A stretch of DNA of 64,000 nucleotides, taken from Parcubacteria group bacterium RIFCSPLOWO2_01_FULL_48_18. GTDB lineage: Bacteria; Patescibacteriota; Minisyncoccia; UBA6257; WO2-01-48-18. The stretch spans positions 2,346 through 66,345 of the forward strand of contig MHXH01000013.1 of the NCBI GenBank assembly GCA_001824435.1, read 5' to 3'. A model generated the notes under the pieces. The model ran no database searches and was not told the DNA's origin. It saw nothing but the letters and a program-made list of their open reading frames with translations. The position numbers were made by a program, and so were the translations under genes. Positions 1-12,924 of this stretch are shown in pieces. How positions within the stretch are numbered: position 1 is the stretch's first letter; every line of letters starts with the position of its first letter.

Positions 1-470
1 GAAGATCCGCCCGGAACCCGTTCAAGGTCATGGGGATTTTTCGTCAGTTGAAACGCGGAATTCTCTGTCGAAGAACCCATTGCGAACTCGTCCAGATTGG
101 TTTTGCCCAAAAATACCGCATCTGCCCCGCGCAGCTTTTCTATGACGGTCGAATCATACGCGGCGCGATAACGTTCTAATACCTTGGATGCCGCGGTTGT
201 TGGAGTGCCGCGGATTAATATATTGTCTTTGATTGCCATGGGACAGCCGACCAGCGTGCCGGTCGGCTCGTCTTTTGCAATTTTTACATCGATTTCATGA
301 GCTTGCTGAATCGCTTCGTCGTGGAAAAGAGAAAGATAAGCGCCAATCTCTTTGTCTTTCTTCTCGACGTAGCCAAGAAACTCTTTCGTGAGCTCGAAAG
401 CGGAAATCTCTTTATTCAGAAGAGCATCGCGGACTTTTGTAATTGTAAGACCCTTTAATAAAATCAGTTT
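1..470 (-). CDS. gatA: Glu-tRNA(Gln)/Asp-tRNA(Asn) amidotransferase subunit A, N-terminal part (gene runs off the left edge of the window)
   Basis: Minus-strand translation gives ...LTITKVRDALLNKEISAFELT...AIKDNILIRGTPTTAASKVLERYRAAYDSTVIEKLRGADAVFLGKTNLDEFAMGSSTENSAF, the amidase signature of GatA. It lies directly downstream of gatC. No in-frame ATG/GTG/TTG is visible before the upstream in-frame TAA, so the start codon is unclear. Confidence 0.8.
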
Positions 471-488
471 AGAATTTAGAATTTAGAA
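468..488. repeat. tandem heptamer repeat (TTTAGAA x3) in gatA-gatC spacer
   Basis: GTTTAGAATTTAGAATTTAGAATA. Confidence 0.8.
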
Positions 489-818
489 TACCGGTGGTAC
501 CTTTAAGAACGTTCCTTTCTTTTCCGGAAACGCCTCGATTACCCTTCCTGTTTCGCCGCTTTCCTTTTTCTTGAGCTCGATGTCAATTTCGTCCTGGCGC
601 ATGACCGTTGTCAGCAATGTTCCGCCGCTCATCGGCTCCGCGCCTTCGACGCGGACTTCTTTGAGCTGTTCGAAATAATCCAAAATGGCGCTCAAATCTT
701 TGAGAAGTCTCGGTCTGTCTTTTTGTGGAACATCGAGGCGTGAAAGCTCCAGCAGATGTTTTAAAAGTTGTTTGTCAATGCGTGACATATGCGCGGTGCC
801 AACAGATCGCGAATGCAT
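483..818 (-). CDS. gatC: Glu-tRNA(Gln) amidotransferase subunit C
   Basis: 111-aa ORF with GatC-like sequence (LAHLARL-type N-terminus, ...LKDLSAILDYFEQLKEV...). It precedes gatA in the classic gatCA(B) arrangement. Confidence 0.75.
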   Translation of the reverse strand: MHSRSVGTAHMSRIDKQLLKHLLELSRLDVPQKDRPRLLKDLSAILDYFEQLKEVRVEGAEPMSGGTLLTTVMRQDEIDIELKKKESGETGRVIEAFPEKKGTFLKVPPVF

Positions 819-887
819 GCGAATTACGCGAATAAAGAACGCTTTCGTGCCATTTGCGCGTGTTCACATTCATTTTGCGTCGCGTGC

Positions 888-3011
888 TTACTGAATCATT
901 TTCAAAAACACTTTCTCATTGATTATTTTAGTCCCAAGCCTTTTCGCTTTTTCCAGTTTTGCTCCGGGAGTATTCCCCGTAACTAAATAATCTAAATCTT
1001 GCGTGACATCCGAGGTTGTTCTTCCCCCTTCCGAGAGCACTTTTTCTTTTGCTTCGTCGCGGCTCATTGATTCGAGGCCGCCGGTGAACAGGAAGCACAA
1101 TCCTTTTAATTTTGCGGCAGCGGAACCCGGCGCTGGGCGCTCTATCCGTATTCCGACGCGGTCGAGTTTTTTTATCAACGCACGATTGCGCCCGTCTGCG
1201 AAAAACGACTTGATGCTTTCGGCAACCGCGTTTCCGACGTCAGGGGTTTCTTTGAGTCCCTCCGGGTCCATTGCGTCAAATATTGTCAATACATCTGATG
1301 GAACGTGAATAGGCTGGCCGGACAAAACCGTTTCAGCTAGGGCCGCAGCAGTTTGTTCTCCGACATGCAGAATGCCGAGGGCGTACAAAAATCGCGGCAA
1401 TGAGACGACCTTATGCGAGGCGATCGAGTGTATGATATTCGCCGCCGATAAATCTCCGAACCGTTCCAGAACGGCGATGTCGGCTTCTTTCAGCGAAAAA
1501 AGATCGGCGGCGTCCCGAATGAGCCCCTCTTCCAAAAAGCGGTCAAGGACCTTGGGGCCTACGCCGCGGACATCGAACGCCGATCGGCTTACTAGATGAT
1601 ACAGTTTCTCTTTAAACTTCGCAACGCAGCTTTTGCCCACACAGCGATAGAATACGCCTTCGTTATCTCGTTTTACCGGGGAGCCGCAGACGGGACATGC
1701 GCGCGGTATATGGAATTCCTTCTCTTTTCCGGTTCTTAATTCTTTCAGTACTTTGTTAACTTTGGGAATTACATCTCCGGCTCTTCCAACGATCACCGTA
1801 TCGCCTATTTTTACGCCGAGCCGTTTTATTTCGTCGTAATTATGCAGCGAGGCGCGAGAAACGGTAACGCCGCCCACCTGGACAGGTTTGAGTTTTGCTA
1901 CCGGCGTCAGGATGCCGGTTCTGCCGACTTGTATCATAATATCTTCCACGATCGTTTCCGCTTCTCTCGGAGCAAATTTGTATGCCACGGCGGCCCGCGG
2001 CGCCTTGCCGACAATTCCCGCGCGCGCAAATGTTGCATTATCATTGATGAGTATTACCACGCCGTCAATTTCATAATTCAACCGGCTGCGGGCCTCGGCC
2101 CAGTAGTTGTGGAACACGAAGATCTTATCGAGCCCCCTGACTGCTTTGTTGTGCCGGTTGGTTTTAAATCCAAACGATTCAAGAATGGCATGTTCTTCTT
2201 CGTGCGTTGTTTGACCGAGGTCGGTGACGAGGGCGTATGCGAATGCATCTAACTTCCTGGAAGCGGTGACTTTGGGATCGAGTTGGCGCACAGAGCCGGC
2301 TGCAACATTTCTCGGATTGGCATATGTTTTTTCTTCCCTTTGCCGCTGTAGCGCGTTGAGCGCTTCAAAGTCCTTTTTGTTCATGAATATCTCGCCGCGC
2401 ACAATCAACTCTTTCGGCCAGCGATGTTCAATTGTCCGCGCTATGTGTCGGAGTCCTAATGCGTCGAGGTTTTGCAGGATTGCTTCTTTTTCAAGCAGGC
2501 GCAGCGGTATAGCCTCTATGGTTTTTAAATTGTTTGTTACGTCCTCGCCGATTATTCCATCGCCGCGCGTTGATCCCGTCGCAAGCGACCCGTTTTTGTA
2601 AGCAAGCTCAATTGCGAGGCCGTCGATTTTGAGTTCGCAGTAAAAATCTTTTGAGTTTGGTCCGCCGGCTGGCGGATGGAATTTAGAATCTGGAATATCT
2701 AGATAATCGGCGACTCGTTTAAGCCAATCCTTCATATCTTGTTCGGAGAAGGCGTCGTTAAACGACAGCATGCGTTTAGCGTGCCGGATTTTCTTGAACG
2801 CCTTAAGCGGTTCGCCGCCGACTCGCTGGGTGGGGGAATCGGGCGTAATGAATTCGGGATATCGCTGCTCTAAATCAAAAAGCTCCTTTTTCAAGGAGTC
2901 GTGCGCATCATCTGAAATTTCTTGCCGGTCCAAGACGTGGTACAAATAACGATGATGATTGATCGCCCTGCGCAGCTTCTCAATTCGCCTTTTTGCTTCT
3001 TCTTTTGTCAT
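888..3011 (-). CDS. ligA: NAD-dependent DNA ligase LigA
   Basis: 707 aa. N-terminus [46 protein letters not shown] is the LigA Ia/adenylation domain. It also carries the KxDG adenylation lysine region ([12 protein letters not shown]), a Zn finger (CPVCGSPV...C), HhH and a C-terminal BRCT. Confidence 0.95.
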
Positions 3012-3075
3012 AGATGGTTTCTTTAGCCCGCAGGCTTTTGATGAATGTCGTCGGCGAGCGGTTGCGGAAGGCGAG

Positions 3076-3675
3076 TTACAATGTTGTCTCGTCGGTGTCT
3101 AGGACAGAGATGCATTCCGAATCGCTTGGGTAATCAACGAATCCATCTGGAACGGCCTCGTTGTCTACGCTGTCATTGCATTGCGTGAGTATAGTGAAGC
3201 GCGCCTCAAATGCTCGCGCGGAGTCGCCGAATTCTCCAACGGATTTTATCGTCGGAGGGTCCGGCGGAACAGCCGGGGTGACCGCAACCGAGAATGCGGA
3301 GCCGTTTGCGAGTTGGCAGTTGGTATTTCCGTTGATGTCTACAAAACAGCCGGCGATAACGCCGTTGTCGTCGCATTCAAAGACGGGTGCCTGAAATTGT
3401 TTGTACAGAGCGCATTCTAAGCCGGTGTCTGCTGCGTATGCCGCGCGCGTGGATTCCATAACATCGATGGTTTGGCGCAACTGTAGCAATACAATCATTC
3501 CCGCGACAATAGAAGCGCTTAGCAAGCCGCTTGAAAGAATCATGACGGTGAGTAGCATTACTTGTCCGCTACTGTGAATCTGGAATCTGCCTCTCGGTCC
3601 TGAGCCCATCGGGTCTGAGGCCCTCAGGGTCGAATGACTCGAGGTCGAAGGAGAATTTGGAATCTGGATAAACAT
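3076..3675 (-). CDS. hypothetical membrane/secreted protein, possible minor pilin (hydrophobic N-terminal segment but no canonical GFTLIE)
   Basis: 199-aa ORF with one N-terminal TM helix ([24 protein letters not shown]) and several Cys in a Thr/Asp-rich C-terminus. It sits at the distal end of the pilin gene string. Confidence 0.35.
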
Positions 3676-12162: not shown

Positions 12163-12175
12163 CTTTTGGTTTCCG

Positions 12176-12215
12176 GGCCCCAGATTCCAGACCCCAGATT
12201 CTAGATTCTAAACGC
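12176..12215. repeat. tandem heptamer repeats (CAGATTC x3) upstream of pilB
   Basis: CCCCCAGATTCCAGACCCCAGATTCTAGATTCTAAACG. Confidence 0.75.
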
Positions 12216-12442
12216 TCGGATGTTAAGGCCTTTTACATAATAAATTTCGTAGCGAAATTTTGAGATTTTAAGGTGAAAACCGCGAAGCGCGACGAAGAAT
12301 AGCAATAGCTATTTTGAGGAGCGATGAGCGGTTTGTGGTTCGACAGACTCACCATCCTTCGATGAACCATCCTGAGTTAGTCGAAGGACAGCCCAAATAT
12401 CAAAATTGTAGCAGAAAGATTATTATGCAAGAGGTCTTTAGT

Positions 12443-12850
12443 CTACGGCGTTGGCGGAGAGGAGGTTGCCGGAGAAACAGGAGGCGGAGGAGTGAGCGCC
12501 GGAGCCGGTTGGGAAGGGATAGGCTCCTCCTCTGGCAGGGAAATTCCTGAAAAGGTGCTTGTTGGAAAAGGAATGAATGGATTGGCCCTGCCTATTTCTT
12601 TTGGCTCGAGAAAAAGCGGCACACGGGTTAATTTTTGAAACAAAGGGTTGTTGAGCACTTTATCCGGTTCAAGCCTGATTGTCGATATTTCTCTTCTGCG
12701 TATGTCTGCGGTCGGCTGGAGAATCTCTACGAGCGGCGGCGTTTTGAAGAAAAGAAAATACGTCGACGCGCCCGCGAAGACGAGGGCGATCACCGTCAAG
12801 CTTAGCGCAAACCAATTCAGCTTCCTTTTTTCTTTTACGATAATAGCCAT
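12443..12850 (-). CDS. small single-pass membrane protein with Pro-rich C-terminus in the pilMNO operon (PilP-like by position only)
   Basis: One TM helix (WFALSLTVIALVFAGASTYFLFF) followed by a PxxP-rich tail. It lies directly downstream of the PilO-like gene. Confidence 0.4.
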   Translation of the reverse strand: MAIIVKEKRKLNWFALSLTVIALVFAGASTYFLFFKTPPLVEILQPTADIRRREISTIRLEPDKVLNNPLFQKLTRVPLFLEPKEIGRANPFIPFPTSTFSGISLPEEEPIPSQPAPALTPPPPVSPATSSPPTP

Positions 12851-12852
12851 AA

Positions 12853-12924
12853 GTTATTAGAATCTAGAATTTAGAATCTGGAATTTGGTCCGCCAGCTGG
12901 CGGACTAGATTCCAGATTCCAGGC
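12853..12924. repeat. intergenic heptamer-repeat hairpin around perfect palindrome TCCGCCAGCTGGCGGA
   Basis: TAGAATCTAGAATTTAGAATCTGGAATTTGG-TCCGCCAGCTGGCGGA-CTAGATTCCAGATTCCAGG is the entire PilP-like/PilO spacer. Confidence 0.8.

Follow-up and report, generated by a model that had tools for sequence, protein, structure and literature searches.

The DNA examined here is a 64,000-nucleotide stretch of contig MHXH01000013.1 (hereafter the window) from the Parcubacteria group bacterium RIFCSPLOWO2_01_FULL_48_18, which lives in groundwater and belongs to the Candidate Phyla Radiation (CPR). A protein of this bacterium matches the LigA of the window at 100% identity. The stretch carries at one end a type IV pilus locus in which many of the gene junctions are made of tandem 7-nt repeats. 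The genes of this locus occupy the minus strand from 483 to 15321 and comprise GatC, LigA, four minor-pilin-like genes, PilD, two pilins, PilC, PilT and PilB and, in the same run up to 15321, a 135-aa protein, a PilO-like and a PilN-like protein and PilM. Beyond the pilus side the window holds ordinary housekeeping and cell-envelope genes, and no transposase or other mobilising enzyme was found among the genes of the 64-kb window. The initial annotation had taken the repeats for an architecture peculiar to the pilus operon. We find that they belong to a widespread family that is not specific to pilus genes and that also lies in frame within conserved enzymes, and we consider it probable that the tracts are a lineage-amplified family of heptamer arrays and hairpins accumulating in DNA that tolerates them.

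Tandem arrays were located with Tandem Repeats Finder (TRF), and the excess of any given period was assessed by a matching-at-lag scan against dinucleotide-preserving shuffles, with tract counts covering the 64-kb window of the genome. The lag scan returned 15 period-7 segments compared with 0.2 in the shuffles, while periods 4-6 and 8-13 gave 0-2 segments each and thus no comparable excess; period 14 is enriched only because units with A and G variants alternate. All seven junctions at which heptamers had been noted do hold 7-nt arrays (TRF 468-489, 4337-4419, 5071-5092, 6622-6696, 9184-9269, 12178-12210 and 12857-12922), and direct reading of the seven tracts confirmed the units that had been named. 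Those in the first 13 kb are all variants of the heptamer RGAATYT or its complement (AGAATTT, GGAATTT, AGGATTT, AGGCTTT, AGAATCT, GGAATCT and GGGGTCT), and across the window the 14 tracts fall into the unit families GAATYTR, GGCTTTA, ACCAGCT, GACAAGT and ATAATGA. The window therefore contains 7-nt units arranged head to tail at dispersed loci, in several families and mostly in non-coding DNA, as in short tandemly repeated repetitive (STRR) sequences in the broad sense, together with convergent array pairs that have stem-loop potential, as in Xanthomonas.

Folding was assessed for each spacer as the minimum free energy (MFE) and its z-score on both strands, the sense strand being that of the pilus mRNA. 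The 93-nt spacer between two minor-pilin-like genes is filled by a heptamer hairpin (4333..4421, from TRF and direct reading) with (GAATTTR)x4.7 as the left arm, (YAGATTC)x4.6 as the right arm and a loop of 21 nt. An independent inverted-repeat search paired 4333-4366 with 4388-4421 as 34-nt arms of 76% complementarity, and the segment 4331-4423 has an MFE of -29.1 (sense) and -36.8 (antisense) kcal/mol, with z = -5.3 and -7.2. The 90-nt PilT-PilC spacer (9183..9272) consists entirely of heptamers, with (AGGCTTT)x6 followed by (TAATTCC/TAATGCC/TAATGTC)x6; it has a lag-7 identity of 0.73, abuts the TTG start of PilC and folds over 9178-9275 with -32.5 (sense) and -39.7 (antisense) kcal/mol (z = -5.9 and -7.2). 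After the PilO-like gene, a composite element recognized both by direct reading and by nhmmer (12857..12922) fills the 74-nt spacer, with (GAATYTR)x4 and GG leading into the core TCCGCCAGCTGGCGGA (12889-12904), which is followed by (YAGATTC)x2.3. Its arms (12874-12896 and 12897-12919) are 23 nt long and 91% complementary, and the MFE over 12851-12927 is -33.2 (sense) and -37.7 (antisense) kcal/mol (z = -5.2 and -7.4). The description of most junctions as two reverse-complementary halves thus applies strongly to these three spacers (z -5.2 to -7.4) and moderately to 5040-5125 and 6610-6707, but not to 455-500 and 12163-12225, which hold single arrays; the long and imperfect transcript hairpins that had been foreseen are accordingly found at several spacers, with sense MFEs of -29 to -33 kcal/mol and z of about -5 to -6. 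Five of the seven tracts abut the stop codon of the upstream gene, and three occupy the entire spacer to the next start. An AGGAG on the sense (minus) strand is exposed at the tip of the 4333-4421 hairpin, in its loop (4372-4384), ∼50 nt upstream of the next start; no Shine-Dalgarno-like motif was seen by eye directly before the starts inspected (those of PilB, PilT, the first pilin, LigA and the genes at 3800-4330 and 12443-12850).

The other pilus tracts are less regular. On the minus strand, directly after the stop of the gene at 5120-5659, a composite element (5066..5135) is made up of an array AAATTCY x3 (5070-5092), the core TCCGCCAACCGGCGGA (5093-5108) and then CCAGATTCC. Between the second pilin gene and PilD, (AGAATTT/AGGATTT)x5 is followed by the weaker partner array (GCTAAAT)x4.4 (6622..6696; sense MFE -20.7, z = -3.0). 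A single array, TTTAGAA x3.1 (465..491), runs into the 3' end of GatC (483-788, minus strand), taking in its TAA stop and final codon, and has no partner arm, with folding z-scores of -1.1 and +0.8. The single array that lies 16 nt upstream of the PilB ATG (12178..12210) reads CCCCAGA TTCCAGA CCCCAGA TTCTAGA TTCTAA, and its TAGAAT units on the sense strand are the best sigma-70-like -10 match of the region; the best promoter-like match in 1-15500, TTAACA-17-TAGAAT upstream of PilB (12226..12198), agrees at 10/12 positions, as a consensus match only. The PilB-PilT spacer holds a weak and decayed 7/14-nt tract that had escaped the initial annotation (10387..10419; TCTCTTG ATCCTCG TCTCTTG TCGCCCG), for which TRF gives a period of 14 and lag-7 matches are 13/21 (p = 0.01).

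The repeats had been reported as confined to the first 13 kb, but further copies lie in LigA, in the CCA-adding enzyme, after ClpB and in a short array near the far end. The LigA copy, in frame on the minus strand (2641..2704), is of the palindrome-plus-heptamer form, with the core TCCGCCGGCTGGCGGA (2661-2676) and then GGAATTTAGAATCTGGAAT. In the CCA-adding enzyme, on the plus strand, an in-frame heptamer pair (27124..27182) consists of (ACCAGCT)x2.4, a 22-nt centre and (CAAGCTA)x2.9. A plus-strand hairpin from another unit family (GACAAGT/GACCAGT ... ACATGTC; 35162..35215) lies behind the ClpB stop (35160) and ahead of the gene that comes next, with a sense MFE of -23.1 and z = -4.0, and the short array, (ATAATGA)x3.4 (56659..56682, plus strand), spans the stop codon of a DAO-family gene and forms no hairpin. 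Nor do heptamers build every intergenic spacer of the pilus locus, as had also been claimed: with the pilus side taken as 1-15321 of the window and spacers of at least 35 nt counted, a period-7 signal is present in only 7 of 16, namely those at 4331, 4955, 6558, 9183, 10347 (weak), 12163 and 12851, and it is lacking from those at 789, 3012, 3676, 5660, 7191, 7773, 13528 and 14059. The enrichment near the pilus genes is real, because elsewhere in the window only 1 of 25 spacers, the one after ClpB, has such a signal. Inverted repeats of the ordinary sort are found in several of the heptamer-free spacers, and one of them, after the first pilin gene, forms a terminator-like hairpin. Two inverted repeats that are not built from heptamers, one of 27 nt and 85% complementarity in the spacer 5' of the first pilin gene (7813-7913) and one of 17 nt and 94% complementarity flanking 69 nt between two minor-pilin-like genes (3686-3788), are better candidates for regulatory hairpins than the heptamers are.

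We compared the tracts between independent assemblies of the locus. The PilB protein is encoded on 11 contigs of such assemblies, and eight loci were compared (from JGI, from two ENA pipelines including megahit, and from Logan), matching the window at 99.8-100% identity. Single-nucleotide polymorphisms (SNPs) among the eight lie at 13706, 13390, 5493-5494 and 3422, all outside the tracts, and at the consensus level there are zero indels and zero substitutions in any heptamer tract. Being identical in eight assemblies that otherwise differ by SNPs, the tracts are genuine, and the assembly or synthetic artefact that had been considered as a possible refutation does not apply; tract length is stable at the level of the assembled consensus. 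A tract shared by two further loci (L129 and L130) is likewise identical, with no heptamer length polymorphism.

The comparison that bears on a role in the pilus operon is with a relative in which the locus is collinear with that of the window (L131), in the order ComF-like, PilM, N, O, a small gene, PilB, PilT, PilC, pilin, PilD, minor pilins and LigA, with proteins 19-73% identical to those of the window (61% for LigA). The spacers of this relative are only 3-56 nt long and amount to 215 nt over 10 junctions, compared with 1720 nt over 14 in the window, and no period-7 tract is present in its pilus locus. Because a collinear operon is thus short-spaced and free of heptamers, the tracts are lineage-specific additions. 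Six related Parcubacteria loci (128 kb) together hold 3 period-7 tracts, against 14 in the window, 9 of them in the first 13 kb. Elements at other sites show no association with pilus loci either, as pilus genes are found at 3 of 94 metagenome loci and at 2 of 120 genome-scan loci (among the matches listed) that bear them, which by a rough estimate is about the level expected by chance. The absence from the relative's operon, the rarity of pilus genes at other element loci and the copies in LigA and the CCA enzyme all speak against a pilus-specific design, and a pilus-specific regulatory interpretation is not supported.

Three of the tracts belong to a defined family. Its core, TCCGCC-N4-GGCGGA with GG and T flanks, is present in three copies in the window; a search of the window for the element TCCGCCxxxxGGCGGA, such as the initial annotation had proposed for the rest of the genome, added the third copy, in LigA. 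A metagenome scan with GAATYTGGTCCGCCNNNNGGCGGA gave 94 matching stretches, in which the loop was AGCT in 50 and AGCC, GGCT or GGCC in 19, and the right flank was mostly TGGAATTTGGAATTT. As neither the loop nor the right flank had been specified in the query, their recurrence defines a composite element with the consensus (GGAATTT)n-GG-TCCGCCAGCTGGCGGA-T-(GGAATTT)n; about 10 high-GC matches with unrelated loops and flanks look like chance. The family amounts to 58 distinct metagenomic sites, and an nhmmer profile made from 57 distinct metagenomic copies finds exactly three members in the window, at 5071-5124 (E = 3.7e-13), at 2646-2699 in LigA (E = 6.6e-13) and at 12867-12913 (E = 2.5e-12). 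Symmetric loops (AGCT or GGCC) number 54 compared with ∼20 asymmetric ones, and most copies have a core that is perfectly palindromic over its 16 nt.

The arrays themselves are distributed still more broadly. With one genome per species, GAATYTR x3 occurs in at least 120 stretches from many phyla, the hosts among the matches listed being Cyanobacteria, Bacteroidota, Acidobacteriota, Planctomycetota, Gammaproteobacteria and ∼12 CPR lineages; most of the listed matches extend well past the 20-nt seed, up to 14 units, which identifies them as arrays and not as chance occurrences. The metagenome loci that bear the element contain 132 period-7 tracts compared with 18 of period 6 and 56 of period 8, and the corresponding numbers for the genome-scan loci, among the matches listed, are 415, 34 and 58. 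Since the element loci are rich in many different heptamer units, the 7-nt register is a property of these genomes and not of one motif. Rfam, searched with E up to 1 for 1-16000 and with gathering thresholds for the entire window, gave no family for any tract, the sole matches being a chance microRNA at E = 0.8 and two tRNAs. Carriage of the element by phages is unsupported, a scan of viral contigs having returned one match only. In a Candidatus Harrisonbacteria metagenome-assembled genome (L227), the stretch 16334-16359 reads CTAACCC CTAAACC CTATACC CTAAA and is a near-copy of the plant-type telomere unit CCCTAAA, and the TTTAGGC and TTTAGGA units of the window (9184-9227 and 6622-6659) are one base off TTTAGGG; this likeness to telomeres is probably a coincidence.

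Both enzymes that carry copies in the window accommodate them as additional residues. The LigA insert is positioned in a variable loop just before the KxDG adenylation motif, and the extra residues IPD and PPAGG are missing from all 59 aligned homologues. In the CCA-adding enzyme the insert comprises 16 residues (TSYQLPLETARGKQAT) between RRDFTINA and IDPFGG, and alignment to PDB 6ibp leaves a gap of 16 residues exactly at the heptamer pair. Another CCA enzyme (L133) bears the GGAATTT/palindrome element in this same loop, and another LigA (L148) bears it in a different variable loop from that of the window. Such placement is frequent, with 27 of the 58 distinct metagenomic copies lying at least 40 aa deep on both sides in open reading frames (ORFs) of at least 150 aa and about a dozen more immediately 5' of a long ORF. 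The 61-nt consensus contains no stop codon in any of its six frames, a state that 0 of 5000 shuffles reached, and its frames read KFQIPNS, GIWNLEF, PPAGG, SASWR and RQLA. The palindrome is also translated in frame inside a probable Mur-type ligase, judged from the translation, at two loci (L154, 1290-1313 of Ga0209541_10203079, and L184); L154 comes from the same JGI metagenome as L001, shares the window's GC content of 0.49 and may derive from the same genome as a separate contig. The translated core PPAGG occurs at yet other sites in LigA (P0035) and the CCA enzyme (P0222) of other organisms, in the latter without obvious heptamer arms (ILLSPPAGGEPKDWD).

The CCA loop turns over rapidly. Both flanking motifs, RRDFTxNA and DPFGG, could be located in 109 of 120 CPR homologues (P0121-P0240); the loop that they enclose has 6-12 residues in 50 and 13-35 in 59, and the longer loops carry peptides of heptamer-type periodicity. 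Enzymes that are 88-93% identical outside the loop bear unrelated loops (for example P0159 and P0217, at 93%), and filled and empty alleles are seen between close relatives of 82-89% nucleotide identity. One such pair (L231 filled, L232 empty; 89% nucleotide identity) differs by 30 nt that read GGAATCA AGAATCA AGAATCA GGAAGTA AGGAAGT, and another (L233 and L234) by a 57-nt hairpin within which 14 nt are tandemly duplicated; neither pair shows an evident target-site duplication. From this turnover and these alleles it follows that arrays are gained afresh, by local origin or by arrival, within short spans of evolution and both in spacers and in coding DNA, and, judged from the aligned sequences, the CCA loop is a hot spot for in-frame heptamer and hairpin insertions across CPR lineages.

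The two strands of the element differ in folding. In direct GGAATTT arrays it is the G-rich strand alone that is quasi-palindromic, by way of G.U or G.T pairs, and across the family the G-strand RNA folds with -23.5 kcal/mol compared with -15.2 for the C strand, being the more stable in 53 of 57 copies. Coding copies place the weaker-folding C strand in the mRNA in 21 of 27 cases against 6 of 27 (p = 0.006), and at the three strong pilus hairpins the antisense strand is more stable than the mRNA strand (-36.8/-29.1, -39.7/-32.5 and -37.7/-33.2). A preference for the weaker strand in mRNA is the opposite of what selection for mRNA structure would produce. The bias is consistent with a filter that removes the most disruptive copies, and an alternative cause that cannot be separated from it here is the tolerance for amino acids (KFQIPNS compared with the Trp-containing GIWNLEF). 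A stem-plus-T-run criterion picked out 19 terminator-like sites, with no heptamer hairpin among them, and a terminator reading was rejected on this ground.

The heptamer architecture is of a known kind. STRR sequences in the strict sense have the units CCCCAGT, TTGGTCA and CAACAGT, their hosts are heterocyst-forming cyanobacteria, and insertions of them are reportedly found in the RNase P RNA gene. The repeats described here are like them in having several co-existing heptamer families, dispersed and mostly non-coding arrays and helix extension in structured genes, but the Parcubacteria host and the different units place them outside that strict sense, and the STRR description lacks the in-frame protein insertions and the palindromic core, both of which are found here. 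STRR heptanucleotides have been described in Calothrix, Anabaena and Nostoc (Mazel et al. 1990, as cited in PMC4692102). Heptamers are the most over-represented of the long simple-sequence repeats in many bacteria, and the suggested cause is that the polymerase slips on a 7-nt contact (Mrazek et al. 2007, as related in PMC4679880 and PMC4692102). Xanthomonas has ∼185 (GGGAATC)n loci, with 70 convergent pairs capable of forming stem-loops in Xcc (Rehm et al. 2015, PMC4692102); related species retain the positions of these loci but differ in their lengths, and Nostoc possesses (GGGGAYT)n heptameric intergenic repeats (PMC4692102). The likeness extends to tandem 7-nt units, mostly intergenic positions and convergent pairs, theirs being at hundreds of loci per genome, and GGGAATC is one base apart from TGGAATC, which occurs here, as does TAGAATC. 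The CPR host, the subset with the 16-nt palindrome and the in-frame protein copies distinguish the present repeats from both. The G-quadruplex reading of the Xanthomonas and Nostoc repeats is inapplicable, because no unit here has more than two consecutive G; only 12178-12210 has two C4 runs, which is fewer than four G3 tracts. The TAACTGA direct repeats of marine Beggiatoaceae, Cyanobacteria and Bacteroidetes (MacGregor 2015, PMC4679880) are similarly intergenic, in 2-6 copies, often just upstream of starts, patchy across phyla and intermixed with other heptamers, but they consist of a single unit with 1 indirect repeat in 170 sets, whereas the present tracts vary in unit and commonly form convergent arrays and hairpins. 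The statement in the initial annotation that a tandem heptameric intergenic architecture is not a described feature thus stands for pilus operons but not for bacteria at large, in view of Xanthomonas and Nostoc (PMC4692102) and of Beggiatoaceae, Cyanobacteria and Bacteroidetes (PMC4679880).

The palindromic copies invite comparison with other dispersed elements, among them the Rickettsia palindromic elements (RPEs), which are likewise repeated palindromes translated in frame at permissive loops of conserved proteins and lacking in homologues. RPEs are ∼100-150 bp long, are known only from Rickettsia and are not known to have an assigned transposase. They are not built from heptamers, whereas the elements here have a 16-nt core with heptamer arms and total 40-90 nt. 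Repetitive extragenic palindromic (REP) sequences, bacterial interspersed mosaic elements (BIMEs) and REPINs are short GC-rich palindromes mobilised by REP-associated tyrosine transposases (RAYTs; PMC3733652, PMC3116915). Like the present elements they are highly repeated short palindromes that often follow stop codons within operons, where they can stabilise the upstream mRNA, but no GTAG or CGTC head is present here, and REPs are extragenic by definition while half of the copies here are intragenic. No RAYT (Y1 HUH transposase) domain was found among the genes of the 64-kb window. As to the hallmarks of miniature inverted-repeat transposable elements (terminal inverted repeats, a target-site duplication and a related autonomous transposon), the filled and empty pairs show no evident target-site duplication, and the genes of the window include no transposase. 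The SDR4-6 repeats of Nostoc, which Elhai and colleagues reportedly described in 2008, are said to be 21-27 nt long, apparently mobile, embedded in other repeats and restricted to Nostocaceae; they are alike in being very small repeats with no known mobilising enzyme, and their sequences are unrelated. In the literature, no full-text match was found for CCGCCAGCTGGCGG, GGAATTTGGAATTT or GAATTTAGAATTT, and among the papers listed for CPR bacteria in combination with REP-type or miniature inverted-repeat transposable elements, none dealt with such elements. As far as the searchable literature extends, the presence and local density of such repeats in a CPR genome, the palindrome core open in six frames and the frequent in-frame insertion into essential enzymes appear to be new.

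The repeats are therefore best read as simple-sequence repeats of the cyanobacterial STRR type, often in two convergent arrays and in a subset arranged around a conserved 16-nt palindrome. We propose that they would accumulate where additional DNA is tolerated, that is in the pilus spacers, swollen from ∼215 to ∼1720 nt in total, and in surface loops of LigA and the CCA enzyme, where they are translated. Arrays would lengthen and shorten through replication slippage in steps of 7 or 14 nt, a second arm could be produced by strand-switch copying, the palindrome version may spread through some copy-and-paste or gene-conversion process, and purifying selection would spare only copies that do little harm, from which the stop-free consensus and the preference for the weaker strand in mRNA would follow. 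Any effects on pilus expression, such as protection from 3' exonucleases, masking of the starts of PilC and the minor pilin or a fortuitous TAGAAT -10 element before PilB, would then be by-products. Several observations weigh against this reading. With a stricter cut the pilus-side enrichment is 4/16 compared with 0/25 spacers (Fisher p = 0.018), a concentration that is unexplained and could mean a local function. The three sense-strand junction hairpins are very stable (z about -5) and flank start codons, which makes a regulatory effect plausible. The palindrome core is conserved at least as well as its flanks at two orthologous sites seen in strains that have diverged (L146/L197 and L166/L210), pointing to a possible constraint. 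The comparison of operons involves one fully collinear relative, and a distant one at 61% LigA identity. Finally, copy-and-paste spread is deduced from the sequence identity between sites, as there is neither a mobilising enzyme in the window nor a target-site duplication.

Of the rival explanations, the most substantial holds that the hairpins are functional intercistronic RNA elements of the REP/BIME kind, which block 3'-to-5' decay, provide RNase sites or occlude starts and in this way set the ratios of pilin, ATPase and platform. The sense-strand stabilities at 4331, 9178 and 12851 (z -5.2 to -5.9), the tracts that abut stop codons or fill spacers and the enrichment on the pilus side would all suit such elements, and the long hairpins into which several spacers can fold must have some effect on a polycistronic pilus mRNA. 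We judge the regulatory reading possible but unlikely, given that the collinear operon of the relative has no tracts, that each of the three strong hairpins is more stable on the antisense strand and coding copies favour the weak strand, that the same elements lie inside ORFs, that two of the seven tracts, being single arrays, form no hairpin and that element loci elsewhere carry pilus genes at about the chance rate (a rough estimate); under the tolerated-repeat reading any effect on the mRNA would be incidental. Tandem repeats are in principle prone to slippage, Xanthomonas heptamer arrays vary in length between species (PMC4692102), and the TAGAAT units at 12198-12210 are, by consensus matching, the best -10-like candidate upstream of PilB, so that gains and losses of 7 nt might shift promoter spacing or the structure of a 5'-untranslated region and switch the pilus genes. 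Such phase variation, which the initial annotation had suggested, is very improbable: no tract has an indel or a SNP in eight assemblies that bear SNPs elsewhere, the arrays are mostly imperfect (alternating A/G units) and short (2-6 units), which lowers slippage, and the copies within ORFs are fixed in frame.

We regard it as very doubtful that the tracts are arrays of binding sites, whether for an OB-fold or cold-shock-type protein with a 7-nt footprint, for a dimeric binder of the palindrome or for a competence pilus as uptake signals. DNA uptake signals are far denser than 3 per 64 kb, which is the frequency of the palindrome here, and the uptake reading was rejected on these sequence grounds. 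A dimeric DNA binder would be suited by the perfect palindrome with its mostly symmetric loops (54 compared with ∼20) and by the conservation of the core at orthologous sites, and CspB binds heptamer repeats with one protein per unit, according to the review of that work in PMC4679880. However, the units differ between tracts and between genomes, which argues against one sequence-specific binder, and no candidate binder gene among those of the window is linked to the tracts. An artefact of assembly or synthesis deserves practically no weight, for although tandem repeats can be mis-assembled, the same sequence is present in JGI, ENA, Logan and NCBI assemblies, copies are in frame in conserved proteins and homologous elements are found in hundreds of unrelated contigs.

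More tentatively, the heptamer hairpins and (GGAATTT)n-TCCGCCAGCTGGCGGA-(GGAATTT)n could represent a new class of tiny non-autonomous mobile DNA of CPR bacteria, perhaps distributed more widely, that would be a counterpart of the RPEs with a mobilising mechanism tied to the 7-nt register. Such an element, with its stop-free consensus, would land repeatedly in frame in surface loops of LigA, the CCA enzyme and the probable Mur-type ligase, turn over fast at hot-spot loops and swell operon spacers. For the pilus operon itself the result is deflationary, as the spacers are no operon-specific regulatory invention and annotators should not infer a function from them. Heptamer repeats, which have been a small puzzle since 1990, are now extended to ultra-small CPR bacteria with supposedly streamlined genomes, and a conserved six-frame-open palindrome-plus-heptamer element is defined at dozens of metagenomic sites, about half of them in genes. 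The CCA-enzyme loop with its filled and empty alleles offers a tractable system for the birth of 7-nt arrays and for the preference for period 7. Such insertions inflate the lengths of CPR proteins and spacers and may confound homology-based annotation.

Some further features were observed that are separate from the heptamer tracts. In a related Parcubacteria contig (L230, 13868-15255), near LigA, a bAvd gene lies beside a reverse-transcriptase gene in what looks like a diversity-generating retroelement, unrelated to the repeats. In the window, 43331-43398 contains two tandem DnaA-box-like motifs (TTATCCACA and TTGTCCACA) and, behind them, a 36-nt palindrome without mismatches (ATGCACTAAATTATGCTATAGCATAATTTAGTGCAT); the gene downstream (43454-44053) has PaaX_M/Cas2-like domains, and there is no switch in GC skew at the site. 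This gene is followed by a 706-nt AT-rich non-coding stretch (44054-44759) that is the GC minimum of the window (0.42) and is dense in short tandem repeats of periods 5, 11, 13 and 18. An 18-nt tandem repeat in 5.5 copies (40029-40127; CCGCCTCCGTCAGTGACA) lies within an ORF of 1167 aa that has a peptidoglycan-binding domain, in which it would give a 6-residue protein repeat.

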